The notes: a model not told the origin generated them from the sequence alone. Positions 1 to 24,811 are shown, counted from the first letter of the stretch. The stretch is DNA of 27,494 bases from Spirochaetia bacterium (GCA_045579325.1 JAZNLX010000203.1:1-27494), one strand, 5' to 3'. Numbers and translations: made by a program.

Positions 1-1974
1 GAAGGAATAAAAGATATTCATTCTATTTCCGAAGAAGCTCGCGCATGGATTCAAATAAAAGTTCAGCAATTCAGAGAATGCATTAAACATGTACAGTTTC
101 CAAATAAGCCTGTATGGTGGGAAGCAATGCGTATCTCGAGAAATAAAATAGCACATCAGGAAGAAGATTTATCTGATTCAGTTCTGACTTCAATACTCTC
201 AACCGTATCATCAAATCTTTCCAAGATAGAATACGATTTGTTCGCTAATATAAAACGTTACCGACAAGATTCAAAGAAAAAACGTCGCTTTGAAAATCTT
301 ACATCATCAGCATTAGGTTCCGAATCTGAAAAGAAACAGTTTGTTGATGCAATGGAAGAATATACAAATCCAAATATCCCAGAAGATGTTAGAATTGAGT
401 TTCCAAAGAATAAGTATACAGAACTCGGAGCTTCAATTCTCAAAGAAATTTCTTCACAAAACAATATTTTGGAATATGAAAGAAAACATACAGGTCTTTC
501 AGAAAATATTCAGACTGACATTCTTGAATGGCTTGAGAAAGTAAATAAATACTTAGTGAAAGAAGATCCTTTCAGAGAAGAGGCGATTTTTATTGAACAG
601 CAAAAACTTCAAGCCGCAGAAGATATTGCAAGTGATCTTATAAAAGACTCTTCAAAGATGGAATATCACTATAAACGGCTTCCATCTATAAGTGATTCGA
701 AAAGAGGTGCTATCGAAGCAAGTACTGTAAATTTTGACTTTTATCATAATCAGTTTGTAAAAGAGGCCAAGCTGGTAAAGTCTAAGAACGAAAAAGGAGA
801 CGAAATTGAATTCCTCAAATGGAAATCTGCTGATAAGCTGGAAATCCTTAAAAGAAATATCATTTTGGATTTAGAGCAAAATCTTGTTGAAAGAAAATCA
901 AAATGGGAACTAGCACAGATTGATTCAAAGCGAAAAGAATTCTTAGAAAAGCTTTATTCAAAAATCTATAAGTTTATGAAACTTGAAAGTCTCCTGATGC
1001 CTTTTATCAAGAATCTCGGACGATTGTGGGATTTAAGCGAAGGAACTTTTGAAACTAGTGGATTTGAAATTCTAGACACTTTTGCAAAGTTACTTGAGAA
1101 TGATGAATCCTTAAAAGAATTAGCTGACCTTTTAGGAAAACAAACTCGTGCACAAATCTCTTATGAAAAAGAGTTACGTGATAAAGTAGTTATAAAATCC
1201 AGCTGGCAGCCTAAACATGCATATAAAGGTGAAATAAACGGTCTTCGGTTTTCCAATGATATTTCCTCGGTTTTACCAAGCGAATTATCTTTGATGAATA
1301 ATCCGGCCGCAAACAAACTTTTTCAATTGAAGTTCGCACAGAAACAACTCTTATCGTATGACTATCAGCGAATGGAAGAAGAACAAGAAGAATCAAAAGA
1401 AAAAGAGGAAACAACTGTAGAAAAAAAAGAGCCCAAAGGTCCGATAATTATCTGCGTAGATACAAGTGGCTCAATGCATGGAATTCCAGAGAATATTGCA
1501 AAGACTATAACCTTTGCACTCTCAAAGATTGCTATTGAGGAAGAAAGAAAGTGTTACCTGATTTCATTCTCAACAAGCTTTGAAACTCTTGATCTTACAG
1601 ATTTTTCAGCTAACCCAATTGGCAAGCTTGTTCAATTCCTTAGAATGTCATTTCATGGTGGAACAGATGCAACTCCAGCACTTAAACATGCTGTAAAAAT
1701 GCTTTCAAAAAACGAATGGAAAAATGCTGATGTTCTGATGATATCTGACTTTGTAATGCAGACATTAGATAACGGCATAAAGACACAAATAGAATCTGCA
1801 CAGAAAGATAATACAAACTTCCACAGCTTGGTAATTGGCAGTTCTGGAAACAATGCAGCAATAAATTGTTTTAATCATAACTGGGTTTATGATGTAAACA
1901 ATCCTCAAGCTAACAGACATCTTGTAGAACAGATTCATGAAATCAAAATGCATGATTCAGTAGCTAATGTCTAA
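1..1974 (+). CDS. ViaA-like von Willebrand factor A (vWA) domain protein, 5'-partial (RavA/MoxR AAA+ partner family)
   Basis: The reading frame of ORF 127..1974 is open from base 1 (EGIKDIHSISEEARAWIQ...PVWWEAMR), so the true start lies upstream of the window. C-terminal MIDAS motifs: GPIIICVDTSGSM (DxSxS), FHGGTD, ADVLMISDF. SNDISSVLPSEL...QKQLLSY resembles the ViaA pre-vWA segment. Confidence 0.85.
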   Translation, partial: EGIKDIHSISEEARAWIQIKVQQFRECIKHVQFPNKPVWWEAMRISRNKIAHQEEDLSDSVLTSILSTVSSNLSKIEYDLFANIKRYRQDSKKKRRFENLTSSALGSESEKKQFVDAMEEYTNPNIPEDVRIEFPKNKYTELGASILKEISSQNNILEYERKHTGLSENIQTDILEWLEKVNKYLVKEDPFREEAIFIEQQKLQAAEDIASDLIKDSSKMEYHYKRLPSISDSKRGAIEASTVNFDFYHNQFVKEAKLVKSKNEKGDEIEFLKWKSADKLEILKRNIILDLEQNLVERKSKWELAQIDSKRKEFLEKLYSKIYKFMKLESLLMPFIKNLGRLWDLSEGTFETSGFEILDTFAKLLENDESLKELADLLGKQTRAQISYEKELRDKVVIKSSWQPKHAYKGEINGLRFSNDISSVLPSELSLMNNPAANKLFQLKFAQKQLLSYDYQRMEEEQEESKEKEETTVEKKEPKGPIIICVDTSGSMHGIPENIAKTITFALSKIAIEEERKCYLISFSTSFETLDLTDFSANPIGKLVQFLRMSFHGGTDATPALKHAVKMLSKNEWKNADVLMISDFVMQTLDNGIKTQIESAQKDNTNFHSLVIGSSGNNAAINCFNHNWVYDVNNPQANRHLVEQIHEIKMHDSVANV

Positions 1975-2023
1975 ATTAGCATGAAACCTATTTTTACTTA
2001 AATTATTTGCAAATTTGAGCAGC

Positions 2024-2067
2024 GACCGCCGGGTATTTTCGTCAAAAACCCGACGGTCAATTTTATT
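2024..2067 (+). terminator. Probable intrinsic terminator hairpin downstream of the vWA gene
   Basis: GACCGCCGGGT-A-TTTT-cgtc-AAAA-ACCCGACGGTC (2024-2058) is a 15-bp stem with one C/A mismatch (G.U on the minus strand) and one bulge. It is followed by AATTTTATT and lies 50 bp after the stop codon. Confidence 0.55.
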
Positions 2068-2220
2068 AAAAATAACCATAGTTAGTATTGTTTGCTTAGT
2101 TAAATTCCAGGGCAAAAATCAAAAATTTGAACGGAAAGATACTACAGTTCAGCCCTCTTAGTTTAAGTAAATTCTCTAAGTAAAAAGTACTTTTTTCTGA
2201 AGAAATCTGAAATTTTCTGC

Positions 2221-2248
2221 TTGCAAATAATGAAAAACAGTATAAAAT
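2221..2248 (+). promoter_or_regulatory. Candidate sigma70 promoter pointing toward the tRNA fragment and antisense to the end of the glycan operon
   Basis: TTGCAA (2221-2226), 16-bp spacer, TAAAAT (2243-2248). The AT-rich context raises the chance of a spurious match. Confidence 0.35.
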
Positions 2249-2307
2249 ATAGGAAAAATAAGACAATCTAAAGTAATTTAAAGCGGAAAAGGAGTCCCCA
2301 AAGCCCC

Positions 2308-2333
2308 CTCATAACCCGGAGGCCGTAGGTTCA
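2308..2333 (+). pseudogene. Fragment of an initiator tRNA-Met(CAT) gene, anticodon loop to T-loop; not a functional tRNA
   Basis: CTCATAA-CCCGG-AGGCC-GTAGG-TTCA corresponds to the anticodon loop (CAT at 2310-2312), the 3' anticodon stem with the three C's typical of initiator tRNA, the variable loop, the 5' T-stem and the start of the T-loop. The 5' anticodon-stem strand and the acceptor stem/CCA are absent. Confidence 0.8.
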
Positions 2334-3029
2334 GACCCTGGTTGCCTTTATTGTATAATTGCCGTCCGGAAAGCTTTCCCTCAGCCGGCTGTCTATGTTC
2401 TGGACATTGTTGATATCGGTCCAGACTGTCCTGAACTTAATCTCCACGGAATCACTTCTCCCCTTGTACTCAAGAAAACTGACCTGTCCGCCGCCGGCCT
2501 CTGTTACAGCCTTGATTATATGCTCCCTGCCGGGAAGAGTGTTCTCTTCGCCCTGAAAGAATGTAATGGTTATATCCAGCTCCATGTGGTTAAGGAAATA
2601 TTTTTTCCCGAAGCCTGAAAAATGGACTGCCAGCATGAGAATCCCGGTAAATACCGCAATGACAGCCGCAATCAGATAGAAGCCCAGACCGTTTGCCATA
2701 CCGATTACGATGGCCAGGAAGATGAAGGACATATCTATGAAGCTGTTTACGCTGGTCCTGAAACGGATAATGGAAACTGCACCCACGAGACCGAAGGCAA
2801 CGGCAAGATTGTTTCCGATAACCATCATGGCACCTGCAAGGATAACCGAGATAAAGACCATGGACTGCATCATTATGTAATTGTTCTGCTTGGTCTTGTT
2901 CATTACCTTGTAGATTTCTCCCAGGATCAGGTTGAAGAAGGCTGAAAGACCCAGTCCCACCAGACAGTTCCAGATTGATTCCACCCTGATGGTTGATTCA
3001 TTGTCTGCAAAAGAATTAAAAATTTCCAT
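2331..3029 (-). CDS. DUF4956 family membrane protein (MgtC/SapB-related)
   Basis: Signature VIGNNLAVAFGLVGAVSIIRFRT, four to five hydrophobic segments and a soluble C-terminal domain. RBS AAGGAG precedes the ATG. Confidence 0.85.
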   Translation of the reverse strand: MEIFNSFADNESTIRVESIWNCLVGLGLSAFFNLILGEIYKVMNKTKQNNYIMMQSMVFISVILAGAMMVIGNNLAVAFGLVGAVSIIRFRTSVNSFIDMSFIFLAIVIGMANGLGFYLIAAVIAVFTGILMLAVHFSGFGKKYFLNHMELDITITFFQGEENTLPGREHIIKAVTEAGGGQVSFLEYKGRSDSVEIKFRTVWTDINNVQNIDSRLRESFPDGNYTIKATRV

Positions 3030-3045
3030 ATTTCTCCTTTATCCT

Positions 3046-4158
3046 TTAAGGCAGTTCAAGACTCCCCCAGGTTATGCGTCCCGAGGTACTGTCCAGATAT
3101 GCTGCCGCTTCATTCTTGTTATTGACAAAATCTCCGTAATATGAACCGTATAACGGATCGTTTCTTACAGGCAGATCTGCCTCCCCGTACATTTCCGCCG
3201 CTTCGTCCCTGAGAACGGAAAGGATGTTTTCAGGTCCCGGTGTCACGAAAAGCTCGTTTACCCGGCTGTTGTATGCAGCCCTGACCTCGGGTACGGATGT
3301 AAGCCGGCGTACCAGCTGATTGTCTCCCGAAAGATCGTAACCGCTTATATCGCTGTAGATACAGCTTTCATTGTCCCAAGGCAGGAAGTAGAATTTTCCG
3401 TCAAAACAGATATAGAAATTTGTTCTGAAGGTATCCTTTACCGTAAGAAAATTATGCACTGCCAGATAGGATGCAAACTTCTCCACGTCCACATACCTGT
3501 TTACAAATTCTCTCCAGCCTTCATCCGATTTGGTTACACAGGCTGAAACAAGATGCTCCAGATTGGCAAAGTTGTCATCATCCGGGAATTTCTTTTCGGA
3601 CAGGGATGCAAGGGGATTGTTTGCCCCCAGATCGTTATAATCCTCGAAATAGCACTTGAAAAGCTCTCCTGCTATCTCGTTTTCGTCATAGTAGGTGATG
3701 AAATTGTAGCATCCGATATATTCGTCGTTAAGGAAGAGGGCTATGGTTTCGGTATCGCAGGCCGGAAGACCCGCCAGCTGATAGGCCCGCATGGCAATCC
3801 TGTTATCCACACCGCCGCCGGACTGTCCCCTTTCAAGCACATATTTCTTTCCGTCTATCTTCAGCATGAAGGATTTCTTGGAATGCATTCTGGATGTATA
3901 GCCCCTGACCTTGATCTTTCCTTCTCCGGTCCAGCTCCCCTTTTCAATGCGGCATCTGGCATAGTCATCGGTGGAAACGGAGCCATAGAGAGTCTCGGTT
4001 TCCCGGTCTGTAAGATGGATCTTTACCTTGGAAACACTCCCCACATCGGGATCGTCATTATCCGCAAGCCCCACGAACTCGCCGCAGGAAAAAAGAAGAA
4101 GCGAAAGAACGGGAATTATGGCAAACTTCAGGATTTTACGCAAAAGCTTATACTCCAT
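3046..4158 (-). CDS. CotH-family kinase lipoprotein (copy 2); alternative TTG start at 4143
   Basis: Signal peptide ending LLLFS-C. CotH-type motifs KVRGYTSR..KKSF, LFLNDEYIGCY, ELFK and DTFRTNFY...FYFLPWDNE. GGAG lies ahead of the TTG at 4143, with no clear RBS before the ATG at 4158. Confidence 0.85.
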   Translation of the reverse strand: MEYKLLRKILKFAIIPVLSLLLFSCGEFVGLADNDDPDVGSVSKVKIHLTDRETETLYGSVSTDDYARCRIEKGSWTGEGKIKVRGYTSRMHSKKSFMLKIDGKKYVLERGQSGGGVDNRIAMRAYQLAGLPACDTETIALFLNDEYIGCYNFITYYDENEIAGELFKCYFEDYNDLGANNPLASLSEKKFPDDDNFANLEHLVSACVTKSDEGWREFVNRYVDVEKFASYLAVHNFLTVKDTFRTNFYICFDGKFYFLPWDNESCIYSDISGYDLSGDNQLVRRLTSVPEVRAAYNSRVNELFVTPGPENILSVLRDEAAEMYGEADLPVRNDPLYGSYYGDFVNNKNEAAAYLDSTSGRITWGSLELP

Positions 4159-5153
4159 ATCGGTTCAAAATCTGTTTCAAGTCCGCTGCCGTTGTCATAG
4201 GTATCGAACTGCACGCCCCCTTCCAGATGCATGAACACGTTGCGGCCGTGGAAATAGTTTCCAAGAAGGAGCTCCACACGGCGGCTGTCATCTATCCTGT
4301 CGATGTCCGGCATAAGGATACCGGCTCTGAAGGCAGGGGTGTATACAAAACGGGATGTACTGAAGTTATAGCCCACGGATGCATCGGCCGCTGCGAAGAA
4401 GCTTTCCTCCTTGCCCGGAAAATGAAGCAGTCCCACGGGATCCACCAGATTGGTTCCGGCAGAGGCTTCGGCTGTAACAACCCAGCTTGTGGTATACATG
4501 AAATATTTCATATCAAAGAGGAAGTTGTTGTACTGATATTCGTCTCCGATTCCCAGAGCTGCCTGATGAACCGCATAAGGAAGATAGGATGCCGTGAAGG
4601 CCAGGAAATGGCGGTCCGGCTCGAAGTTGTACATTCCTGTAAGGATAAACTGGGTTTCGTTGTGGGATGAATTGAAAAAGAAGGTGGCATCCAGTGTCAG
4701 ATTATCTGTAAGAAAATTGTCATGCACATAGCGGATACCGGTGTCGTTTGAGGACCAGCCCAGCTTCTTCATGTATTCTACACCCGGGGAATCCATTTCG
4801 AAAACCTCGTATCTTTTCTTAACAAAGTCGTTCAGGTAAAGGTCTCTCTGGAAAATTCCCCCCTTTATCCAGCTCAGCTCGTCAAAGGCATAGACAACCG
4901 AAACCTCGTCCGGCTCCACATCCTTCCTGTCAATTTCCATGGAGAGAATGGTGGAAAGACGGTCGCTTATCATATATTCGGCGGTAAAGGTCCCTTCCAG
5001 CTCGTATTCCAGATAATACTTGTCTCCGGTTACGTCGGAATCATCCAGCTTGAATTCCACTTCAGCATCAAACTTTATCCTGTCCTCCTTGGCTGCAAAG
5101 AGCGAAACGGAACAGAGTATCAAAACAGTAAATAAAATCAGTATCTTTTTCAT
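4128..5153 (-). CDS. Putative outer-membrane beta-barrel/porin (copy 2), OprO/OprP-like N-terminal pattern
   Basis: Signal peptide (MKKILILFTVLILCSVSLFA), alternating amphipathic strands and C-terminal strand WSISFCVKS. Paralogous to 6249..7262 (NLVDPVG vs GLVNPMG; FFAAAD vs FFGGAD; ELLLGN vs EVLFGN; HLEGG vs HLDGG). Confidence 0.6.
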   Translation of the reverse strand: MKKILILFTVLILCSVSLFAAKEDRIKFDAEVEFKLDDSDVTGDKYYLEYELEGTFTAEYMISDRLSTILSMEIDRKDVEPDEVSVVYAFDELSWIKGGIFQRDLYLNDFVKKRYEVFEMDSPGVEYMKKLGWSSNDTGIRYVHDNFLTDNLTLDATFFFNSSHNETQFILTGMYNFEPDRHFLAFTASYLPYAVHQAALGIGDEYQYNNFLFDMKYFMYTTSWVVTAEASAGTNLVDPVGLLHFPGKEESFFAAADASVGYNFSTSRFVYTPAFRAGILMPDIDRIDDSRRVELLLGNYFHGRNVFMHLEGGVQFDTYDNGSGLETDFEPIWSISFCVKS

Positions 5154-6265
5154 AACAGTCCTTTAACTATATCTCCCCTGTTGCTGATAAAATATTTTAT
5201 GTAATTTTTCATATTTGTAAAATCCTTTTCGGTATAACGGTAGCTTGGATCGTTCTTTACGGCAAAAAAAGCCTCGTCATACCATTTGTCCACCTGTGCC
5301 TTCAGCTCATTGAGAAAAGCTGTGTCATCGGCCAGATCTGTCATGGCCTGTTTGTAGGCGGTCCGTACCGAAGGAACTGTAAGTATACGGCGCTGGATTT
5401 TTCCGTCTCCGTAGATACGGCCTGAATTCAGCTCCATTCCCAGCTCGTTGTCCCAGGGGAGGAAAACCATCTTTCCGTAATTGTACAGGTAGTAGTTCCA
5501 GTTTGCGGTATCGCCCACGGCAAAGAAATCGTGGACCACCATGTATCTGATGAAATTATCCACATCGATATGGGATTCCACCCACTCATTCCATTGGGCA
5601 TCGGACATGTAGTTTGTGTTTACGATAAGGGTTTCCAGAGAAGAAAAATCGTCGTTATCGGGAAATTTCCTTTCGGAATTGGAACGGAGAGGATTTTCCT
5701 CGTATCCCAGAAGCTCTATCTTGAACAGCTCCGACATGAAACCGCTTTTCCATGCCTCCAGCTGCTCCTGGCTGTACATGTCCACCTTGGCGTAGTAGCC
5801 GATGTACTTGTCATTGATATAAAGTGCCACTGCCTCTGTTTCAGGAGCAGGAACCAGCGCCTCTCCCTTGTACATGAAATTGTTGTAGGCATACATGACA
5901 ATACGATTCTTCAGCCAGGTGAAATCCTCGTGCATAAGGGCATAATTTCCCTCGTGCATTCCCTCCTTTATCCTCAGGGTAAAGTTCTTCTTCGGGTAAC
6001 GGCGGGAGGTATTGCCTCTGACTCTCATGGTTCCCTCCACGTTCACGCCGTTATTTACCGTAATGCGGCACGGAGTATGATCCTCCTCCGGAGGCGAAAC
6101 ACTGTCGTAGAACCGTTCCATGTTCTCTTCCGAAAAATATACCTTTATCTTCTTTACATTTCCCACATCGGGATCGGTAAAATCGTCAAATCCGATGAAT
6201 TCGCCGCAGGAAAAAAAGGAAAAAGATAGAATCAGAACTGTTAAAAGCTTAATTCTTGATAACAA
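5150..6265 (-). CDS. CotH-family kinase lipoprotein (copy 1)
   Basis: TTG start, signal peptide ending SFFS-C. Motifs RVRGNTSRRYPKKNF, LYINDKYIGYY, ELFK and DTANWNYY...MVFLPWDNE. Shares SCGEF(I/V)G and DPDVG with copy 2. Confidence 0.85.
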   Translation of the reverse strand: MLSRIKLLTVLILSFSFFSCGEFIGFDDFTDPDVGNVKKIKVYFSEENMERFYDSVSPPEEDHTPCRITVNNGVNVEGTMRVRGNTSRRYPKKNFTLRIKEGMHEGNYALMHEDFTWLKNRIVMYAYNNFMYKGEALVPAPETEAVALYINDKYIGYYAKVDMYSQEQLEAWKSGFMSELFKIELLGYEENPLRSNSERKFPDNDDFSSLETLIVNTNYMSDAQWNEWVESHIDVDNFIRYMVVHDFFAVGDTANWNYYLYNYGKMVFLPWDNELGMELNSGRIYGDGKIQRRILTVPSVRTAYKQAMTDLADDTAFLNELKAQVDKWYDEAFFAVKNDPSYRYTEKDFTNMKNYIKYFISNRGDIVKGLL

Positions 6266-7262
6266 CTGACACCGCCCATCTCAGTTCGAGTTTTGTTTTA
6301 AGATCATCATCCCCGAAGCCGTCATGCTTGGTAATGATTCCCAGGCCTCCGTCCAGATGGAGCTTGACATTCTCCTTATAGGTGAACTGGTTTCCGAACA
6401 GTACTTCGAATTCGTTGCAGTCTGCCTCGGAGATCTCGGGAATAAAGGCAGTTCCTCTGAGCATCGGAAGCCAGCGTACGAAATCTGTAAGCTGTACATT
6501 GATACCGCCGTGGATATCGGCTCCGCCGAAGAAAGGATGCTCTGTATCTGCATCAAAGTTTATGTGCCCCATGGGATTGACCAACCCGGAGCCCAATGTA
6601 AGCTCGGCACCGTAAATATATTTTCCACGGTAATCGGCATAGACCAGGTTGCCGTAGAAATTATCCCGGGGATAGTCCTTCTCGGATGCATCCCATTTCT
6701 TGTGATTCAGGAACGGATAATAGGAAACAAAGATTCCGGCCACCATTTCCTTATCGGGATCCTGACGGTAGAATCCGCCGCAGAGCTGAGGCTCCAGCTG
6801 GGAAGGAATGTAGAGCACATGGGCAAAACCGCCCCAGTTGTCTCCGCTTTCATCCCTGTATTCGTACTTGCCTCCGATGGCGCGGGAAATATAACCCTGA
6901 TCCTTCAGTTCCCGGGTAATGATATTCTTTCTGGCAAAAGGACGGTCAAAGGAACCGATATAGTCGTCAAGAGTCAGGATATTCTCGAATTTACCCGCCT
7001 TTACGGAATGGTTTTCAAGAAAGGTATATTTTGCGGAAATCTCATCCACGTCTACCTCGTACTTGTCCAGCACAGGCTTGAACACCAGTTCTATATCATC
7101 GGTGGCATCAAACTTGAAACGGAGCTTTCCCTGAAGGTCGTAAAAATCGTCCTTATCCATTTCATCGTTGGACTCAATGCTGAACTCAGGCTTGATGGAA
7201 AACTGCGAGAATGCAGCAATCGGCACGGCAAACAAAACAAGAAACAAAACCAATTTTTTCAT
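6249..7262 (-). CDS. Putative outer-membrane beta-barrel/porin (copy 1), OprO/OprP-like N-terminal pattern
   Basis: Signal peptide MKKLVLFLVLFAVPIAAFS-Q. The segment DEISAKYTF..HSVKAGKFENILTLDD..FDRPFAR recalls the phosphate-selective porin pattern (from memory). C-terminal strand WAVSVVIKN. ATGA overlap with the upstream GT4. Confidence 0.6.
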   Translation of the reverse strand: MKKLVLFLVLFAVPIAAFSQFSIKPEFSIESNDEMDKDDFYDLQGKLRFKFDATDDIELVFKPVLDKYEVDVDEISAKYTFLENHSVKAGKFENILTLDDYIGSFDRPFARKNIITRELKDQGYISRAIGGKYEYRDESGDNWGGFAHVLYIPSQLEPQLCGGFYRQDPDKEMVAGIFVSYYPFLNHKKWDASEKDYPRDNFYGNLVYADYRGKYIYGAELTLGSGLVNPMGHINFDADTEHPFFGGADIHGGINVQLTDFVRWLPMLRGTAFIPEISEADCNEFEVLFGNQFTYKENVKLHLDGGLGIITKHDGFGDDDLKTKLELRWAVSVVIKN

Positions 7263-8359
7263 CTTTTCAATATCTCCAAATATACTGATATAACTTTCTT
7301 TTCGTCAAATTTTTCTTCTGCAAGCATACGGCTCCTTCTGCCCATTTCCAGCCTTTCTTCCCGGCTGAGAAGAATGAATTTCTTAAGCACACGATACAGG
7401 TCATCGGCAGATCTCGCCTCGGTTACATAGCCGTTTTCGCCGTCTGTAACTGTTTCCCTGCAGCCCGGCATGTCGGTGGTGATTACCGGCCTTCCCATGG
7501 CAAGGGCCTCTATGAGAATCTTGGGAATTCCTTCCCTGTAGTAGGATGGAAGAACCACTGCGCTGCAGGATGCAATATAAGGTCTTACATCCTTGGTCTG
7601 GCCGCCGTAGTATGCCCCTTTTTCAGGATCCAGGGCCTCCAGCTCTGAAAGCCTGACTCCCATGGGATTGTCATTGTCCGCAGGGCCCAGAAGTACAAAT
7701 TCAGAATCGGGAAACTCCTTTTTCAGCCGTCCCGCCGCCTCGATAAACTCTCCTATTCCCTTGTTTCTGAGCATGCGGGAAATAAGCATGAATTTTCTTG
7801 TTTCAGGTACCGGGGTAAAGTCAAACTTTTCAAGATCGGCACCTGACCCATTAACAAGATATACATTCCTTTCGCCGATTATCTTTTCATAGATAAAGAA
7901 CTGACGGTCATCCGGGTTCTGGAAAATCACGGCAAAGGCCTTTTTGAAAGCCCACTTGTAGAGCTGCTTCACTATGCGGTATGTCATGCCGGAAGGATTG
8001 TCAAAGGCTGTTCCCAGGCCGTTTACCGTACAGGCTATCCTGATTCCGGCAAGACGGCAGGCAATGGCACTGTAGATATTGGTCTTTATTGTATAGGTAA
8101 AAACCATATCCGGCTTTATTTTCTTATAGATTTTATAATATTCAAGTATCAGGAAAAGATCTGAAAAAGGATTCTTTCCCTTTCTCTCCAGGTTCTTTAC
8201 CTCATGGAAAACAGTACCGGGATTCTTTATTGATGTGAAATTGGCAGCAGGCGCCACGGTGTGAACCTCGTATCCAAGCCCTTTCAGTGTTTCGATAAAT
8301 CCGGCCCTGTGATTGAAAACCGTCCATGCTGTATTAGAAGAAATGACCACCCTTTTCAT
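7259..8359 (-). CDS. Glycosyltransferase family 4 (PglA/CapM-like)
   Basis: EGIPKILIEALAMG (E-x7-E), LERKGKNPFSDL, ISRMLRNKGIGEF, DMPGCRETV. Confidence 0.9.
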   Translation of the reverse strand: MKRVVISSNTAWTVFNHRAGFIETLKGLGYEVHTVAPAANFTSIKNPGTVFHEVKNLERKGKNPFSDLFLILEYYKIYKKIKPDMVFTYTIKTNIYSAIACRLAGIRIACTVNGLGTAFDNPSGMTYRIVKQLYKWAFKKAFAVIFQNPDDRQFFIYEKIIGERNVYLVNGSGADLEKFDFTPVPETRKFMLISRMLRNKGIGEFIEAAGRLKKEFPDSEFVLLGPADNDNPMGVRLSELEALDPEKGAYYGGQTKDVRPYIASCSAVVLPSYYREGIPKILIEALAMGRPVITTDMPGCRETVTDGENGYVTEARSADDLYRVLKKFILLSREERLEMGRRSRMLAEEKFDEKKVISVYLEILKR

Positions 8360-8360
8360 C

Positions 8361-9482
8361 TTATTTCAGAAGCTCCCTGTATATGTCCAGAGTTTCGGCA
8401 GCCGCCTTTTTCCAGGAAAATTCGCTTTCACGCTTATATCCCTTTTCGGTCAGGGTCTTCCGGAGAGAGCTGTCCTCAGCAATTCTTTTCATGGCTGCGG
8501 TTATTTCTCCGGTTTCAAGGGGATTTACCAGAAGTGCGGCATTTCCGGCAACTTCGGATGTGGAAGAAAAGTCTGAAGTTATGACAGGAGCCCCGCATTT
8601 CATGGCCTCCAGGATAGGAAGCCCGAAGCCTTCGTAGAGGGACGGAAGACAGTATGCCATGGCTCCGGAATAAAGGGTATATTTGTCATCGTCGGAAACA
8701 TAGCCGGTAAAGATAATGTCCCTGCGGTCGGTTCCGTCAGAAACAAAGCTCTTGTGAAGCTTCCCCGCAACCACCAGACGAAGCTCATCCAGATGGGGAT
8801 TCTCTTCCTTAAGCTTAATGAATGCATCTATTGTACGCCCGATATTCTTATGTGGTCTCAGTTCTCCCAGATAAAGGAAATAAGGCTTGTCCAAGGAGAA
8901 TTTCCTGTAGATTTCCTCGTTTTTCTCCATTTTTACCGTTGCTGCCTCGTAAACCACCCTTGCTTTTTCCGTTTTTTTCCTCAGGGAAGGAAAAACCTTG
9001 ATAAGGTCTGACTTGGTGGACTCGGAAACAGAAATAACGCTGTTGCATCTTTTTACCGCATTTTTCATCAGATTCCTGAGATAGAAGGATTTGAGCCCTC
9101 CCTTGTTGCCGAAAAATTCGGGATGAAGAATATATTTAAGGTCATGGATTGTGACCATCTGCTTTCCGCAAAAAAAGAGGGGATGATTGGAATAAAGACA
9201 ATGAAACAGGTCGCATTTCAGAGCCCCGGCATATTTAACAAAAAGGAGATCCCGTCTGATACCGATGGCAGGAATATCAAAAACCTTGACTTCTGTATTG
9301 TTCATCCCTGCAAGCATGACAATGAATGGGTGATCCTTCTTTAGCGACGGATTTACCATAACTGTAAAACGGTAATCTTCAGGTGCAGTCGGAAGAAGCT
9401 CCCTGAGCAGTTCCTCCACGTACTGACCTACTCCGGTCCGGCCGTTTTCCACAGCCAGGGCATCAAGAATTATGTGCTTCAT
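8361..9482 (-). CDS. Glycosyltransferase family 4 (MtfB/mannosyltransferase-like)
   Basis: EGFGLPILEAMKCG, YLGELRPHKNI, TGVGQY. Start re-assigned to the ATG at 9482 (MKHIILD), which has a GGAG RBS and an ATGA overlap with GT25. Confidence 0.9.
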   Translation of the reverse strand: MKHIILDALAVENGRTGVGQYVEELLRELLPTAPEDYRFTVMVNPSLKKDHPFIVMLAGMNNTEVKVFDIPAIGIRRDLLFVKYAGALKCDLFHCLYSNHPLFFCGKQMVTIHDLKYILHPEFFGNKGGLKSFYLRNLMKNAVKRCNSVISVSESTKSDLIKVFPSLRKKTEKARVVYEAATVKMEKNEEIYRKFSLDKPYFLYLGELRPHKNIGRTIDAFIKLKEENPHLDELRLVVAGKLHKSFVSDGTDRRDIIFTGYVSDDDKYTLYSGAMAYCLPSLYEGFGLPILEAMKCGAPVITSDFSSTSEVAGNAALLVNPLETGEITAAMKRIAEDSSLRKTLTEKGYKRESEFSWKKAAAETLDIYRELLK

Positions 9483-10300
9483 CTGACTCTCCTGAATTGT
9501 CTGAAAAAGAATTTTATACGGCGCATGTTCTTGACTCCGTTGGCAAAAGACTTGAAGCAACGGCTTTTTCTTTTAAGTCCCCGGTAAAATTCGATAACTG
9601 CAGAAACAGGACTTCTGTCACCGCCTGTGCTGCCGAACCAGTTTTCCCTGTTCAGTTCGAACCGGCCTGAAATAGTTTCCTGAAACTCCTTGTTCTGAGG
9701 AATGCATACCGGTTTTATGCCGTAGAGACGTACATCTATACCAAGCCTGTTGCCTGTAAGCCAGTCTGCCGGCATACGGATGGGAAAACCTGCGGCAAGA
9801 AGCTTTTTCGCACCGCTGAGTTTAATAAGGTAACCGCTGGTCCAGTTGGGATTTTCCACAAAGCGGACAATATGATATTTTCCGAAAAGCCTCTGCCTAT
9901 CCCAGACAGAAGAAACCGCATTGTTATGGGAAAGGAACATAAGTTCCCAGTCCTCAGGAAACTCCGGCTCTCGACTTAGGATTTCCGGCAGTTCATCACA
10001 GAGAATCACATCATCCTCCAGAATCAGCGCCTCTTCGATATTATCCTCAACCATTTTCCTATAGATATTGAGATGGCTCCAGGAACAGCCTATTTCTCCC
10101 CTTGTCAGCTCCCGGCCGAAAAATGATACGGAGCCCTCGGAGTCATATCCGGCATCAACTTCTGCCTGAGACAGCTTACGCCCGTCCACGGCCGGAAATA
10201 TTTCAAAAGGGATTCCCAGTTTATCAAGCTGATCCGATATGAACTTCCGTCTGTCAGTTGAGGTTTCGAGATTGACTACAAAAACCGGGGGAATTTTCAT
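9479..10300 (-). CDS. Glycosyltransferase family 25
   Basis: VFVVNL...DRR, FPAVDG, LTRGEIGCSWSH, ALILEDDV, GYLI..GAKKLL, PADW. RBS GGAGG. Confidence 0.9.
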   Translation of the reverse strand: MKIPPVFVVNLETSTDRRKFISDQLDKLGIPFEIFPAVDGRKLSQAEVDAGYDSEGSVSFFGRELTRGEIGCSWSHLNIYRKMVEDNIEEALILEDDVILCDELPEILSREPEFPEDWELMFLSHNNAVSSVWDRQRLFGKYHIVRFVENPNWTSGYLIKLSGAKKLLAAGFPIRMPADWLTGNRLGIDVRLYGIKPVCIPQNKEFQETISGRFELNRENWFGSTGGDRSPVSAVIEFYRGLKRKSRCFKSFANGVKNMRRIKFFFRQFRRVR

Positions 10301-18432: not shown

Positions 18433-19677
18433 CTACTTTGAACCAAACCCTGTAAGAATGGTCTTGACTGTTTTTATAAAAATGAGGAGATCCAGCCAGA
18501 AGCCCATATATTTGACATAATAAAGGTCGTAGCTGAGTTTTTCCTCTGTTTCCTCCACTCCGGCTGCATATCCCTGAACCACCTGCGCCCAGCCTGTGAT
18601 TCCCGGCGATGTCAGATGCCTGTATGCATAGAAAGGAATCTCCCTTTCAAATTCCTTGACAAAGCAGACCTGTTCCGGTCTAGGCCCGATAAGGCTCATG
18701 TCCCCCTTGAACACATTTACCAGCTGCGGAAGCTCGTCTATCCTGAACTTTCTGAGGAACTTGCCCATAGGAATTATTCTGCTGTCATTGGTGCAGGTGA
18801 ACTTGGCCCCCTGAGCCTCCGATTCAGTAATCATGGTCCTGAACTTGTACATTCTGAAAGGCTTTCCGCCCCTTCCCACCCTTTCCTGGATAAAAAGAAC
18901 CGGCCCCTTAGAATTGGACTTGATAAGGATCACTGCAAAAAGGCAGAGCGGAAGCACCACCGGCAGTGCAAGAATTATGGTAAAGCATTCGAGAAAACGC
19001 TTAACTGCAAAATAGATTTTCGGAATTCTGAATCCTGAAACCACACCGGAGGAAAGATGCCTGAGGGAAATCCTTCCCGTTACTTTCTCGTAAACGGTGG
19101 CCGCATGGTAAATCGGAATGTTGGTCAGGCTGACATTGGCAATGAAGCGCATCCATTCAGGAGAAATCTTTTCGTGGTAATCGATGATGATTCCGTCACA
19201 GCCCTTATGAAGCTCAGGCTTTTCCAGAAGTTCCCACCTGCGGCTCCCTTTGGATGCCAGCTCGAAACCAAGTCCCACAGGACAGATCAGATAGAAAAGG
19301 CTTTTCGGATTCCGGTACATGTAGAGCCCCAGTCCGATCCAGAAAACGGTGAACAAATAGAAAATCACCAGGAATTTTCTTGAATAATAGACCCTGCCTA
19401 CTGCGATTACCGAAAGCATGATGCAGAGCACAACGGTTATGACAAAAGCCGCAATACCCAGCTGCTCCCGGAAAGAAAAGCGCTTAATCCTCAGCGACAC
19501 TATGCCGGCTGCAAGATATCCGAGAATACATATCGAAAGAAAGGTCCTTTTATAAATTGCATCCCAGAATCTGAAATCCCCGTAAACCAGATAATAGGTT
19601 CCGAAAATCATCACCACCATTCCGAGAACAGTCCATACAAGTGCCTTTATAAGAGAACTGTCAATCTTGTTTTTCAT
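18433..19677 (-). CDS. Initiating polyprenyl-phosphate phosphoglycosyl transferase (WcaJ/WbaP family)
   Basis: Four N-terminal TM segments, KRFLE, MYKFRTM, RIDELPQLVNVFKGDMSLIGPRPE, PGITGWAQV, DLYYV. Start re-assigned to the ATG at 19677 (GGAG RBS). Confidence 0.92.
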   Translation of the reverse strand: MKNKIDSSLIKALVWTVLGMVVMIFGTYYLVYGDFRFWDAIYKRTFLSICILGYLAAGIVSLRIKRFSFREQLGIAAFVITVVLCIMLSVIAVGRVYYSRKFLVIFYLFTVFWIGLGLYMYRNPKSLFYLICPVGLGFELASKGSRRWELLEKPELHKGCDGIIIDYHEKISPEWMRFIANVSLTNIPIYHAATVYEKVTGRISLRHLSSGVVSGFRIPKIYFAVKRFLECFTIILALPVVLPLCLFAVILIKSNSKGPVLFIQERVGRGGKPFRMYKFRTMITESEAQGAKFTCTNDSRIIPMGKFLRKFRIDELPQLVNVFKGDMSLIGPRPEQVCFVKEFEREIPFYAYRHLTSPGITGWAQVVQGYAAGVEETEEKLSYDLYYVKYMGFWLDLLIFIKTVKTILTGFGSK

Positions 19678-20770
19678 TCTTCTCCCTTTCCCCCACACAG
19701 GTAAATGCATATGCAAAAGTCAGAAGCGGTATGTAAATATTGGTCCTGTAACGAATGGCCGCTCCCGGATTCATTACCCCTTGGATATACTGGGCAAAAA
19801 GCAGAAGCACAACTGCCGCAAATCCGAATATCAACCACTGATAGTATACACTGAATTTCCTGAAAATATACACCGGCGCCTTGCGGAGAAGATAAACGAA
19901 GGAAAGCAGCAGAAAGCAGTTTTCGACAAAGGTTGCCTTATGCAGCACCGACTTTCCCAGCTCGGCCAGAGAAGGACCCCACAGGGAGAGTGGCATGAGG
20001 TACGGCATCTTGCGGATAAAGTCAAAATGCTCGGTAAAGACAGGCGCTCTCGTAGAACGGGCGGTACTTCTGTATATGGTATGGAGCTTGTTTAATGTAT
20101 AGGTGTCTATCTTGTAACGGCACAAGTAAAAGGCCCCGAACATGCACAGCACCATGATTATCAGCAGCACAAGCTCGGTTTTCCAGGAAAGCGTTATTCT
20201 CTGCCTTACGAAAATATAGACAATGGAAAGCACCAGAAACGGTATGTAGTAGAACTTGATGACACAGATGAACCATACGGCAAAAATCAGCGGAACCGAA
20301 AATTTTACCGGTTCTCCCTTGAAGAACTTAATGATCTGGGCACAGACGATTCCCATGGAGAAAACCACCAACGCCTCCTTGCTGGCAGTGGATGACCATA
20401 CGGTGAACGAAGGGCTGAAGCAGAGCAGAATCAGGAAGGTGTACATTTTGGTATTGGCTGTTTTTGCGGCCTTGAGCAAAGTCCTGATTCCGTACCAGGC
20501 AAGACAGGCAAAAACCACGTGCACGAGAACCCTTACCTGAAGCACGCTGCTTACGGTACCGACAACCAGCCTCGGCAGAAGAACCCAGTCGGTGAATACA
20601 CGGTGACTATACTCCTGAAACATCTGGGCAGGTCTTGAATTGAGATAGAGATTAACATCACCCAGCCTTGTCAGATTGGCTATGACATATTCCGCCAGAA
20701 AAGAAAAAATTATCCTGTAGAAAAGGAGGTATGTTATAAGTTTGTCAGGGGTGAAATGTCGGTTCTTCAA
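19661..20770 (-). CDS. Polytopic membrane protein, Wzy polymerase- or ligase-like
   Basis: About 9-10 hydrophobic segments with RLGDVNLY near the N-terminus, SKEA and GAAIRYR near the C-terminus. First gene of a Wzx operon. TTG start with strong RBS AAGGTGAGG. Confidence 0.55.
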   Translation of the reverse strand: MKNRHFTPDKLITYLLFYRIIFSFLAEYVIANLTRLGDVNLYLNSRPAQMFQEYSHRVFTDWVLLPRLVVGTVSSVLQVRVLVHVVFACLAWYGIRTLLKAAKTANTKMYTFLILLCFSPSFTVWSSTASKEALVVFSMGIVCAQIIKFFKGEPVKFSVPLIFAVWFICVIKFYYIPFLVLSIVYIFVRQRITLSWKTELVLLIIMVLCMFGAFYLCRYKIDTYTLNKLHTIYRSTARSTRAPVFTEHFDFIRKMPYLMPLSLWGPSLAELGKSVLHKATFVENCFLLLSFVYLLRKAPVYIFRKFSVYYQWLIFGFAAVVLLLFAQYIQGVMNPGAAIRYRTNIYIPLLTFAYAFTCVGEREKNEKQD

Positions 20771-20809: not shown

Positions 20810-20833
20810 ATATTTAGTAATAGGAAAAATCAA
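20805..20833 (-). promoter_or_regulatory. Sigma70 promoter for the 18-gene glycan/CotH operon
   Basis: On the minus strand: TTGATT (20833-20828), exactly 17 bp, then a perfect TATAAT (20810-20805). It lies in the only sizeable intergenic gap (62 bp) upstream of the operon. Confidence 0.65.
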
Positions 20834-21534
20834 TGTCCATAATAAAACTGGAAAATGTAAAAAAATATTATACACTGGGAAAAACAGAGGTTTCGGCTAT
20901 CAAGGGAGTTTCCTTTGATATTGACGGAGGAGACTTTGTATCCATCATCGGTCCTTCGGGATCGGGTAAGTCAACCATCCTCAACATGATCGGATGTATA
21001 GATGTTCCATCTGAGGGAAAAGTCATCATCAACGGCAGGGAAACATCTCATCTCTCAGACAGGGAGATAACCGAACTGCGCCACGATGTCCTGGGCTTTA
21101 TTTTCCAGTCCTTCAACCTGCTTCCTGTACTGAATGTATACGAAAATATCGAGTTTCCTTTCCTTATCGGCAAGAAAAAGTATTCGTCTGCCGAAAAAAA
21201 GGAACACCGGGATTATATCAACCAGCTTATCGAAGCGGTAGGGCTTACTAAATGGAAAGACCACCGTCCCAACGAGCTTTCGGGAGGGCAGCGCCAGAGA
21301 GTTGCCATTGCCCGTGCCCTGGCGACAAAGCCGAAGGTCATACTGGCAGACGAACCTACTGCAAACCTGGACAGCAAGACCGGAGAGGACATCATTGCCC
21401 TTATGAAGAAGATCAACAAAGATCTGGGGACAACCTTTATTTTCTCCACCCACGACCAGAACATATTCTCAATTGCAGATCACGTAATCCGTCTCAAGGA
21501 CGGCCTTGTGGCAGAAGATTTCAGACAGCACTGA
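20833..21534 (+). CDS. ABC transporter ATP-binding protein, LolD/MacB family
   Basis: Walker A GPSGSGKST, signature LSGGQRQR, Walker B/D-loop ILADEPTANLD, H-loop STHD. Confidence 0.95.
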   Translation: MSIIKLENVKKYYTLGKTEVSAIKGVSFDIDGGDFVSIIGPSGSGKSTILNMIGCIDVPSEGKVIINGRETSHLSDREITELRHDVLGFIFQSFNLLPVLNVYENIEFPFLIGKKKYSSAEKKEHRDYINQLIEAVGLTKWKDHRPNELSGGQRQRVAIARALATKPKVILADEPTANLDSKTGEDIIALMKKINKDLGTTFIFSTHDQNIFSIADHVIRLKDGLVAEDFRQH

Positions 21535-21536
21535 TT

Positions 21537-22739
21537 TCAGAAGCTTGAGGAAATTTCCACAAACAGGGTAAATGCCAGCTTTGTGGTAATCGGGAAGTCA
21601 TCGTAGAAGTCATCATCCAGCTCCTTGTCTCCGTAAGTCCAAGGCACCGCAAAATTTATCTTTACATGCTTCCAAGGAGATACGCTGAGTCCTCCGATGA
21701 ACTGACCTGAATCGCTCTCTACGGAATGAAGCCATTTGAGTCCCAGGCTGATTGGGGTACCGAACATATCTTCCCAGTTGGTAGCCAGACCCAGACAGTG
21801 GTCAGGATCATCCTCTATGCGGCCGTCATAATAATATTCGCCGTAAAGCCTGTAGGTGTCGTTCCAGTCTTTATAGAATCCCACAAGTGCCTCGTGGGTA
21901 TATTCGTCAAGGGAATTATGAGTCAGGACATAGTCGTGAAAAAGATCTGTTCCCAGAACGGAAGTCTTTATTCCTCCCATAAGCTTTTCCCCGTCCGCAT
22001 CATTATAGAAGCCGGAAACAGTGAAATTCACACTGCCGAAGGTCTTGTCTGCCAGGCCGGCAAAGGAAACCTCATCCTTGTGCAGCTTGTTCTTGTCTCC
22101 GGTATGAGGGCGCTTCTTGTAAAGGGAAACCAGGGAAACCCCGTCCAGCATGTTCGGCAGCGACATCCTGAAAGCGGTGCCGTCCTCACAGTTATCCATA
22201 AAGTCTGCAGGTCTGAAAAGGCGGCCGTGTCCCCAGGTCATGTAGAATTTTCCAAGTCTGAGATAGGCCTGATCCAACCAGTTGTAATCGCAGTAAAGCT
22301 CATCCGCCTCCAGCATTGACCATGTATCGCTCCCTTCATCGGAATCCAGCTCTGTCTTAAGCTTTCCGAAAATACGGATAGTGGAATCGGGTCTGATGTC
22401 AAAAGATACGGTAGCCTTGGAATAGGCACCGGCAACCACCTCCGGCTTTTCGGAAGGGGGAATCTCATCCCAGCCTATACCGCCACCGCCGCGGACCAGA
22501 AAATGCCCCTTTACGGTAACCTTGTCGCTTTGTTCAAACTGATTGCGGTAATCTATATTGTTGGTTACTTCTATTACGATATCTTCCTGCGGCTCTTCGA
22601 AGATGTTATCCAGATCGGGCTGGATATCAGGTTCTACTGTTTTTTCTGTTCCCGGATCCACCACATCAAGCTCTGCCTCCGCATATATGGAAAGAGGAAG
22701 CATCAGGACAATAAAAGCTGCAGCAAGAAATTTTTTCAA
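21537..22739 (-). CDS. Putative outer-membrane beta-barrel protein
   Basis: Signal peptide (MKKFLAAAFIVLMLPLSIYA-E), acidic N-terminal extension, amphipathic strands (ELYCDY..AYLRLGKFYMTWGHG) and C-terminal Phe (FTLFVEISSSF). TTG start. Confidence 0.65.
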   Translation of the reverse strand: MKKFLAAAFIVLMLPLSIYAEAELDVVDPGTEKTVEPDIQPDLDNIFEEPQEDIVIEVTNNIDYRNQFEQSDKVTVKGHFLVRGGGGIGWDEIPPSEKPEVVAGAYSKATVSFDIRPDSTIRIFGKLKTELDSDEGSDTWSMLEADELYCDYNWLDQAYLRLGKFYMTWGHGRLFRPADFMDNCEDGTAFRMSLPNMLDGVSLVSLYKKRPHTGDKNKLHKDEVSFAGLADKTFGSVNFTVSGFYNDADGEKLMGGIKTSVLGTDLFHDYVLTHNSLDEYTHEALVGFYKDWNDTYRLYGEYYYDGRIEDDPDHCLGLATNWEDMFGTPISLGLKWLHSVESDSGQFIGGLSVSPWKHVKINFAVPWTYGDKELDDDFYDDFPITTKLAFTLFVEISSSF

Positions 22740-22745
22740 TTGTTT

Positions 22746-23516
22746 TTACCGATTCACCTTTTCAAGATATTCTTTAGTATACAGGGAATCGGGTTGTTTG
22801 TTAAGAGATGGATTCTTTATTGTCACCATGGTTCTTTCGTATTCTGTCTTATCCCCCACCCTGCGGAACACAAGATGGTCCTGAATTACGATATTCACGG
22901 GAACCCAGCGGTCGGCAACCTTCTGATAGCGCGGAATGGCCGAAGTTCTCATGAGATTTCCCGAAAGGCTGTAATCTTCTATCTTGCGGACAAGCATGTC
23001 ATCAGATACCCAGATCTTTACCTTAGGGAATGAAACCTTGTTGTTTTTTGCCTTCAGGATAAATACGTTACAGTTGAACTTGCCTAAAGTTTCCTGCTTT
23101 ACGCTTTCAATGCTGTAATCCTTTGAATATGCGGAACCTGTAAAATCGGAAATACGGAAGCTTGAATTCTCGAACCTGTCCCTTGCAGAGGTAAAGGTAA
23201 AGCTTTTTCCGATAGGGTCATAGAGCCAGAGATTGTCTCCCAGCTTGAGATATCCCTTGCCCTTGTCTGATACCGGCTGGAGAATCAGAACCAGGAACTT
23301 TGCATCCCTGTCCCTGCGGAACATGGCAGCCACTGTGGTGGAGGAAGATCCGTCCGGATCCTTCTTTACAATGGTATATTCTGCCGAAAGATCGCTTTCC
23401 ATAAATGCAACCTGGCTGTCAACCTGTCTGAGCATCTGTTCATAGTCTGCCTCCTGGGCAGATACTGAAGTTACGGCAAGCAATGCTATAATAGCGATAA
23501 ACAAAATCTTTTTCAC
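22746..23516 (-). CDS. LolA-like 'outer membrane lipoprotein-sorting protein'
   Basis: Start re-assigned to the GTG at 23516 (AAGGA RBS; signal peptide MKKILFIAIIALLAVTSVSA-Q). KGKGYLKLGDNLWLYDP, SFRISDF, YQKVADRWVP and YTKEYLE match this family from memory. Confidence 0.8.
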   Translation of the reverse strand: MKKILFIAIIALLAVTSVSAQEADYEQMLRQVDSQVAFMESDLSAEYTIVKKDPDGSSSTTVAAMFRRDRDAKFLVLILQPVSDKGKGYLKLGDNLWLYDPIGKSFTFTSARDRFENSSFRISDFTGSAYSKDYSIESVKQETLGKFNCNVFILKAKNNKVSFPKVKIWVSDDMLVRKIEDYSLSGNLMRTSAIPRYQKVADRWVPVNIVIQDHLVFRRVGDKTEYERTMVTIKNPSLNKQPDSLYTKEYLEKVNR

Positions 23517-23520
23517 GGTA

Positions 23521-24810: not shown

Positions 24811-24811
24811 G

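Follow-up and report, generated by a model that had tools for sequence, protein, structure and literature searches.

A duplicated outer-membrane barrel and CotH lipoprotein module in a gut spirochete: a possible porin-docked kinase pair and VTC-less relative of the CotH/VTC/DUF4956 cassette

CotH-type kinases are widespread in non-spore-forming bacteria, and many of them are secreted. In Bacillus, where CotH (5jd9/5jda) has the substrates CotB and CotG, mutation of D228 and D251 of the B. subtilis protein abolishes activity (PMC7821199). CotH also belongs, together with a VTC-type polyphosphate polymerase and DUF4956, to a set of accessory genes found at Gram-positive pel loci (PMC7112168), and in S. 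intermedius deletion of the CotH or the DUF4956 homologue alters Pel levels and aggregation, while deletion of the VTC homologue does not (PMC12345266). Here we describe a locus in a 27,494-nucleotide (nt) contig from the metagenome-assembled genome (MAG) of a Spirochaetia bacterium, in which two successive pairs of genes, each encoding a predicted outer-membrane beta-barrel and a CotH lipoprotein, are followed by a gene for a DUF4956 membrane protein. The contig, referred to below as the window, is the whole stretch of DNA analysed, and all coordinates are counted along it unless another locus is named.

This module is a VTC-less branch of the CotH/VTC/DUF4956 cassette. Our favored reading, to which we assign a probability of roughly 0.45, is that it encodes a porin-docked pair of CotH kinases with an inner-membrane DUF4956 protein, a variant of the cassette for two-membrane (diderm) bacteria that here is set on a phospho-glycan operon. 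The locus would give rise to two paralogous outer-membrane complexes, each consisting of a 16-strand Porin_O_P-like barrel with a lipid-anchored CotH on its long-loop, presumably extracellular, face, the nucleotide-site face and N-terminal tether of CotH being predicted to touch the barrel mouth. The barrel would act as a docking site that keeps the kinase at the outer membrane and as a likely conduit carrying a phosphoryl donor or substrate to it from the periplasm, with DUF4956 as a putative inner-membrane supply or control component; we infer these roles, along with kinase activity itself. In the organism's own genus the module would be co-expressed with the phospho-glycan operon and would probably modify or regulate the surface glycan or its protein carriers, although we hold only tentatively, and at less than even odds, that the function concerns the neighboring glycan. 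The genes in question were called as open reading frames (ORFs) and stand in the following order on the minus strand (lengths in amino acids, aa):

7259..8359, minus strand: GT4 glycosyltransferase (Pfam Glycos_transf_1 6.4e-27, Glyco_trans_4_2 2.6e-17)
6249..7262, minus strand: barrel 1, 337 aa, with signal peptide (AF2 model, Foldseek and family-level Porin_O_P kinship)
5150..6265, minus strand: CotH 1, 371 aa, TTG start, lipoprotein with Cys20 (Pfam CotH 1.3e-31)
4128..5153, minus strand: barrel 2, 341 aa, paralogue of barrel 1 (BLASTP 2e-37, barrel-family profile match 5.4e-119)
3046..4158, minus strand: CotH 2, 370 aa, lipoprotein with Cys25, paralogue of CotH 1 (Pfam CotH 4.5e-19, BLASTP 1e-72)
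2331..3029, minus strand: DUF4956/MgtC-like inner-membrane protein, 232 aa, the operon's final gene (Pfam DUF4956 6.4e-13)

An earlier note on this DNA had described the gene order, the ATGA overlaps and the overlap of each kinase gene with the end of its barrel gene, and all three were recovered when the junctions were read directly. ATGA overlaps join GT4 to barrel 1 and CotH 1 to barrel 2, the TTG start of CotH 1 lies 17 nt inside the end of barrel 1, and the ATG start of CotH 2 lies 31 nt inside the end of barrel 2; CotH 2 and DUF4956 are separated by a gap of 16 nt that contains a GGAG ribosome-binding site. The duplication that the note proposed is likewise real but old: identity between the paralogues is 28% for the barrels (BLASTP, E 2e-37) and 37% for CotH (E 1e-72).

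Both kinases belong to the CotH family, as had been claimed for them. Their matches to the Pfam CotH profile PF08757 (E 1.3e-31 and 110.8 bits for CotH 1, E 4.5e-19 and 69.6 bits for CotH 2) lie well above its curated cut-off of 23.8 bits. A profile made from CotH 1, CotH 2 and 15 homologues (alignment A2) gives a full-length match to B. cereus CotH 5jd9 (E 3.4e-16, positions 61-369 aligned to 25-353); the profile was required for this, phmmer with CotH 1 alone giving no match among PDB sequences. The catalytic Asp (D252 in CotH 1 numbering), the Asn five residues on (N257) and the Asp of the P-W-D motif (D272) occur in every one of the 30 barrel-linked CotH copies collected and align with the B. 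cereus positions, which are spaced as B. subtilis D228 and D251 are, by 23 residues; nearly all of the R-G..S-R...K-K motif common to Bacillus CotH is kept in the same 30 copies. Judged by these residues, CotH 1 and CotH 2 look catalytically intact. The window proteins are therefore alike to Bacillus CotH in PF08757 membership, full-length match and catalytic Asp, Asn and metal-binding Asp, but differ from it in being diderm lipoproteins, paired with barrels, unconnected with a spore and 'minimal' at ~370 aa.

Lipidation is a general property of these kinases: the lipoboxes are FFS-C20 in CotH 1 and LFS-C25 in CotH 2, the Cys is invariant in alignment A2, every partner CotH copy examined carries a lipobox-type signal, and the Spirochaetia copies share a C-G-E-F-x-G tether straight after the lipidated Cys. 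In five sister species barrel 2 is followed by two or three tandem copies of CotH 2 instead of one, as at L015 (G002:C13, 13133-16442), L023, L025 and L026, and all copies have a lipobox and intact catalytic residues. No Ser/Lys/Arg-repeat substrate gene was found near the locus, and a search for Ser/Thr-rich repeat substrates resembling CotB and CotG yielded only three spurious-looking ORFs in the 74%-complete genome, which were set aside.

The barrels are best regarded as diverged members of the Porin_O_P superfamily and not as demonstrated phosphate porins. Folded with a 14-sequence alignment, barrel 1 gives an AF2 model of a 16-strand beta-barrel (pLDDT 76, pTM 0.73) whose strands are joined by short turns at one end and by long loops, the third of them (L3) containing a helix, at the other, and barrel 2 is its paralogue, so that the note's assumption of beta-barrels agrees with the modeling. 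The best Foldseek matches of barrel 1 are porins, namely OmpM1, PorB and OprO/OprP, with OprP highest (TMq 0.65, against 0.61-0.63 for OprO, E about 1e-9) and AlgE scoring lower; AlphaFold DB clusters agree. The kinship emerges only for the family as a whole. Neither window barrel (P0001, P0002) matches a Pfam family at E<=0.01, P0001 has none even at E<=1, and NCBIfam gives no match for either. Of 50 family members, 16 reach the Porin_O_P profile (PF07396; best E 5.6e-9), the two window proteins not being among them. Searched against PDB sequences, the barrel-family profile finds OprO and OprP only, and weakly (E 0.07-0.1), and its nearest ESM Atlas clusters are Porin_O_P; the assignment to a divergent branch follows from these fold, Pfam, profile and Atlas matches taken together. 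The window barrels thus resemble OprP and OprO in their 16-strand porin fold (TM-score 0.65 to OprP) and family-level PF07396 matches, and differ from them in having no Pfam match of their own, in being acidic and in showing, by a crude sequence estimate, no evident arginine ladder. They lack additional domains and match neither TonB-dependent nor DUF560/TPR families in Pfam. The family is tiny: searches of 5.8 billion and 1.8 billion proteins yield 25 clusters and 80 representatives, respectively.

A CotH gene of ~355-390 aa adjoins the barrel gene in every context examined, usually lying immediately downstream and overlapping its end, and barrel plus CotH is the invariant core of the module. 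The surroundings of this core vary widely:

Own genus (the window, L004, L015, L023-L026): preceded by a glycan operon and followed by DUF4956
Sister genus (L005, L010): glycan operon; a second barrel in inverted orientation, with 0.7-0.9 kb between it and its CotH
Third genus (L011): barrel in inverted orientation; genes for epimerase and cytidylyltransferase within 4-7 kb
JGI contig: tandem double barrel-CotH-DUF4956, near chemoreceptor and other non-glycan genes
Spirochaetaceae MAG (L007): pair between a sugar ABC transporter (before) and an MFS gene (after)
G035, first pair: preceded by His-biosynthesis genes
G035, second pair: preceded by glycosyltransferases
L019: pair preceded by OmpA, GTPase and histidine kinase genes
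L020: pair preceded by a GT1 gene
L018, 3490-6840: single operon VTC-DUF4956-barrel-CotH

Several further features were seen at these loci. The flanks of the L018 operon contain a Y1 transposase gene and an AbiE/HEPN toxin-antitoxin set. At L016 (G014:C3, ~8054-10088) a barrel match with two TGA stops lies beside a truncated CotH (a 239-aa frame), which looks like a decayed third pair. An SdiA-regulated/NHL-type beta-propeller protein adjoins the pair in two unrelated contigs (L020, 2920-3657; and L006, 347-1138 / JGI 3300010430 contig) and may be a further accessory component.

The organism is represented by a 1.23-Mb MAG that is 74% complete, and its named relatives are uncultured Spirochaetia MAGs from the forestomach of goat, yak, sheep and buffalo and from horse faeces; as a member of the Spirochaetia from the ruminant or equine gut, it is the diderm that the earlier note took it to be. 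The barrel family is present in 12 of 61 related genomes, and in the organism's family (20 genomes) barrel, CotH and DUF4956 all occur in the same 11 and were all undetected in the other nine. An even sample of the phylum contains the barrel in only 5 of 401 genomes, including two outside the genus, in both of which a CotH lipoprotein gene lies directly downstream.

Conserved adjacency is accompanied by co-divergence. Trees built by maximum likelihood from 21 barrels and from the CotH partners of these 21 have in common well-supported clades for pair 1, for pair 2 and for the inverted loci, as well as two clades that each unite a pair of distant loci, and the pairwise distances of the two proteins are correlated with a Mantel r of 0.925 that none of 5000 permutations reaches, a statistic that shared ancestry inflates. 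The paralogue-specific congruence of the trees is independent of shared ancestry, and it follows that the pair was duplicated as a unit, each barrel evolving with its own kinase.

A physical association of the two proteins is predicted as well. When mature barrel 1 and mature CotH 1 were modeled together with three controls (one job, user-supplied alignments), the pair received an ipSAE of 0.81 (0.79-0.84 over three runs) against 0.00 for the best of the controls; in an approximate calibration, given the user-supplied alignments, 0.81 is reached by 58 of 80 complexes of solved structure and by 2 of 110 mismatched pairs. The predicted interface, mapped on the monomer model, involves on the barrel solely the long loops L1-L8 or adjoining strand ends, on the face opposite the N and C termini that is conventionally extracellular. 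CotH 1 would contribute its tether (residues 20-33) and segments 88-93, 150-155 and 338-344. These three segments carry residues conserved even in the CotH of Bacillus, which has no barrel, and for this reason the model suggests that the nucleotide-site face of the kinase looks toward the pore. We consider it probable that barrel and CotH form a complex, and give about an even chance to CotH lying on the surface-facing side. A disulphide bridge linking the two proteins, from the conserved Cys282 of the barrel to the invariant Cys66 of CotH, was considered and ruled out, since barrel 2 carries Ser at the equivalent position. The one-to-one barrel-lipoprotein complexes proposed in the earlier note are accordingly favored as a pairing, by adjacency, shared clades and the score of the one pair modeled, while a strict ratio fails in some relatives, as described below.

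The third component, DUF4956, links the module to the published cassette. The window protein exceeds the PF16316 cut-off of 30.6 bits (49.2 bits, E 6.4e-13) with only profile positions 13-114 of 169 covered, and also weakly matches MgtC (E 0.0033, Pfam). Its alignment shows an extremely conserved helical membrane core, which is followed by a C-terminal domain with the order beta-alpha-beta-beta-alpha-beta, ACT-like in its AF2 secondary structure (pLDDT 68); the protein is a divergent subfamily member with its own C-terminal domain. The S. intermedius homologue has a matching layout of four transmembrane helices plus ACT (PMC12345266). Among 61 Spirochaetia genomes, 19 of the 20 that bear CotH also have DUF4956.

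Other Spirochaetia carry the full trio with a long CotH (reading frames of 443-1332 aa) and without the window's barrel family, and CotH, VTC and DUF4956 co-occur in the same three control genomes. In one case (L030, G020:C31, 6453-10605) a 480-aa CotH, VTC and DUF4956 are followed by a 439-aa signal-peptide protein whose Atlas model is an alginate-export-like (AlgE-like) barrel (TM 0.80); as a relative of the window's barrel family this protein was rejected, hhalign giving a probability of 3%. It is the single L018 operon, VTC-DUF4956-barrel-CotH, that ties the barrel-CotH pair itself to the cassette. The earlier note knew of no characterised system with this architecture, and a literature search found no description of a barrel-CotH complex; the note missed the CotH/VTC/DUF4956 cassette, which is published though uncharacterised. 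Like the Gram-positive pel cassette, the window has CotH and DUF4956 together at the end of an exopolysaccharide locus, with the same arrangement of membrane helix bundle and ACT-like domain in DUF4956. It differs in that VTC was not found in the window genome or 19 same-family relatives, in that its CotH proteins are lipoproteins whereas pel CotH is a secreted CotH-FN3 protein, in the addition of outer-membrane barrels and a duplicated pair, and in a glycan pathway that is of the Wzx type, not Pel.

More distant parallels can be drawn. Adjacent genes for a barrel and a lipoprotein, the latter here predicted to cap the loop face, are a feature of SusC/SusD, BtuB/BtuG and LptD/LptE. SusC/SusD-type systems have a TonB-dependent 22-strand barrel with a plug, and Slam-type systems a DUF560 barrel with a TPR domain; the window barrel has 16 strands and neither plug nor TonB box, its lipoprotein is an enzyme, a kinase, and not a lid that binds a ligand, and the resemblance is functional only. 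Fam20C, a protein kinase, and Fam20B, a xylose/glycan kinase, are likewise atypical kinases outside the cytoplasm, and the window kinases too would possibly act on a glycan, but the Fam20 enzymes work in the eukaryotic Golgi with ATP supplied by nucleotide transporters, while here there is no known ATP route across two membranes. Yeast VTC combines the Vtc4 tunnel domain with a membrane channel, and the wider cassette similarly pairs a VTC catalytic domain with the small membrane protein DUF4956; DUF4956 is MgtC-like, however, and not a Vtc membrane domain, and VTC was not found in the organism's family.

Several observations weigh against the favored reading. Glycan genes adjoin the pair in about 5 of 11 lineages, and the remainder lack them. 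Five sister species have two barrels and three or four tandem CotH genes, so the one-to-one ratio is not universal, and at three loci the barrel is inverted and 0.7-0.9 kb from CotH. The barrels are strongly acidic, with net charges of about -20 (barrel 1) and -28 (barrel 2); a crude estimate from sequence alone places 16 basic and 16 acidic residues toward the lumen of barrel 1, and 7 basic and 23 acidic toward that of barrel 2, and an arginine ladder of the OprP type, looked for in the same estimate, was evident in neither and least of all in barrel 2, so that the estimate points away from anion or phosphate selectivity. As to a donor, we know of no ATP source outside the inner membrane, and enzymes of polyphosphate synthesis are scarce: VTC (PF09359) was found in none of 20 genomes of the organism's family, its own 74%-complete genome included, and, among 13 genomes of that family, PPK1 in none and PPK2 in only three. 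The barrel-CotH complex is only a prediction, from shallow self-made alignments. Gut metatranscriptome assemblies contain the locus at ~99% identity, one 3568-nt contig covering CotH 2, barrel 2, CotH 1 and barrel 1, but contigs from RNA libraries document presence in those libraries and not a proven transcript.

About half of the lineages carry the pair with no glycan genes beside it, so that such a neighborhood is common without being required. The tie between module and glycan operon that the earlier note asserted stands for the window, where GT4 and barrel 1 share an ATGA, but does not define the module across its relatives; homologous modules lie beside His-biosynthesis, ABC transporter, chemoreceptor, histidine kinase or VTC and DUF4956 genes, away from glycan loci, an outcome that the earlier note had itself listed as refuting its reading.

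The favored reading leaves the barrel's role as a conduit at the level of a likely one, and the fully specified route we regard as unlikely: in it DUF4956 would export the donor, the barrel would conduct it into the active site of the capping CotH, and extracellular glycan or protein would be phosphorylated, with two substrates or donors for the two pairs. The donor so proposed would be a nucleotide or another phospho-anion, and not VTC-made polyphosphate in this lineage. An alternative, to which we likewise give perhaps one chance in a handful, is that the barrel solely carries or holds CotH at the surface, in the manner of Slam or of a SusC/SusD lid, with no channel for donor or substrate. 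The genes are strictly neighbors and have co-diverged, the predicted interface takes in the CotH tether, and the barrel lumen does not look anion-selective, all of which this arrangement would accommodate. It sits less well with a fold that is that of a general 16-strand porin with a helix-bearing L3, and not of the Slam (DUF560 plus TPR) or TonB-dependent type, and with an interface that includes CotH segments shared with the barrel-less Bacillus protein.

Phosphate polymers offer another route, which we judge improbable to a similar degree. DUF4956 and the barrel would pass polyphosphate or pyrophosphate, CotH would use or process it, and the polymer would come from another or an external source after the loss of VTC. 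The distant barrel member in the VTC-DUF4956-barrel-CotH operon of L018, the combination of CotH-VTC-DUF4956 with an AlgE-like barrel in another Spirochaetia genome, the joint occurrence of the trio in the three control genomes and the kinship of the barrel family with the phosphate and polyphosphate porins OprP and OprO all point this way. Set against them are the counts of VTC (0/20), PPK1 (0/13) and PPK2 (3/13) in the organism's family, the strong acidity of the barrels, above all in the lumen of barrel 2 (~7 basic versus 23 acidic), and the lack of a phenotype on VTC deletion in S. intermedius, unlike deletion of CotH or DUF4956 (PMC12345266). Polyphosphate made by the organisms of this family themselves was considered as a donor and appears unlikely, because VTC and PPK1 were not found, PPK2 is rare and the barrels are acidic.

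Still less probable, in our estimate, is the glycan-centred version of the earlier note, in which the barrels export the glycan whose operon lies upstream and each CotH adds phosphate to the polymer on its way out. The translational coupling of the module to GT4, the glycan genes just upstream in about five of the 11 lineages, the presence of AlgE among the weaker fold matches of barrel 1 and the documented Gram-positive link to Pel polysaccharide (PMC7112168, PMC12345266) would suit such a role. The pair is found also without nearby glycan genes, however, the closest matches to the fold are porins of the general and phosphate types, not exporters of polysaccharide, and two diverged exporters for a single glycan would not be expected. 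Fam20B, a relative of the CotH fold, is an established glycan kinase, which adds a precedent for this last activity. That barrels and CotH are merely co-transcribed envelope genes and the complex score a modeling artefact, as a single job with user-supplied alignments and rough calibration and the uneven gene numbers in some relatives might suggest, is very unlikely in view of the 0.00 of all three controls, the adjacency, which persists in very distant lineages whose gene contexts are otherwise unrelated, and the paralogue-specific co-divergence in both trees.

Beyond the module, the operon of which GT4 (7259..8359) is the final gene encodes, by Pfam, an initiating sugar transferase, UDP-glucose dehydrogenase, cytidylyltransferase, epimerase and two sulfatase-superfamily enzymes, and further two LicD proteins, a flippase, GT25 and two GT4 enzymes. 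It is headed by a 369-aa ORF at 19661-20770 without a Pfam match, for which NCBIfam gives a weak match, far below cut-off, to the LIC_10190 membrane-protein family (E 4e-4). A Lol-like set at 20833-26254 comprises an ABC ATPase, two FtsX-type permeases, a LolA-like protein and a 400-aa protein without a Pfam match; a link between this set and the CotH pair is conceivable, both CotH proteins being lipoproteins that need delivery to the outer membrane. A promoter and terminator scan of 1900-8500 gave no signal exceeding shuffled expectation. To the left of the DUF4956 stop codon (1-2331) GC content falls from ~0.45-0.49 to 0.33-0.35, and metatranscriptome contigs from three runs match the window up to position 2331 and are unrelated beyond it. 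The left flank hence differs among strains, and a VWA-domain gene on the plus strand (127-1974) sits in this variable part.

The new elements here are the adjacency of barrel and CotH across contexts that include distant lineages, the clades shared by their trees and the docking model; the window itself contributes this model, a pair duplicated en bloc, a cassette that has lost VTC, and its coupling to a glycan operon. The architecture of the pair suggests how a bacterium with two membranes might position a kinase on its surface. A kinase coupled to a channel genetically, evolutionarily and, by prediction, physically makes the question of the CotH donor and substrate concretely testable. The VTC-less spirochete version is a natural control in this respect, with a core of barrel, CotH and DUF4956 that persists without a recognisable polyphosphate synthase, which would either exclude self-made polyphosphate as a universal donor or point to an external source in the gut. 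The hosts of the module are abundant uncultured spirochetes of the rumen and hindgut, in which any phosphorylation at the cell surface could affect interactions with plant fibre, phage or the host.

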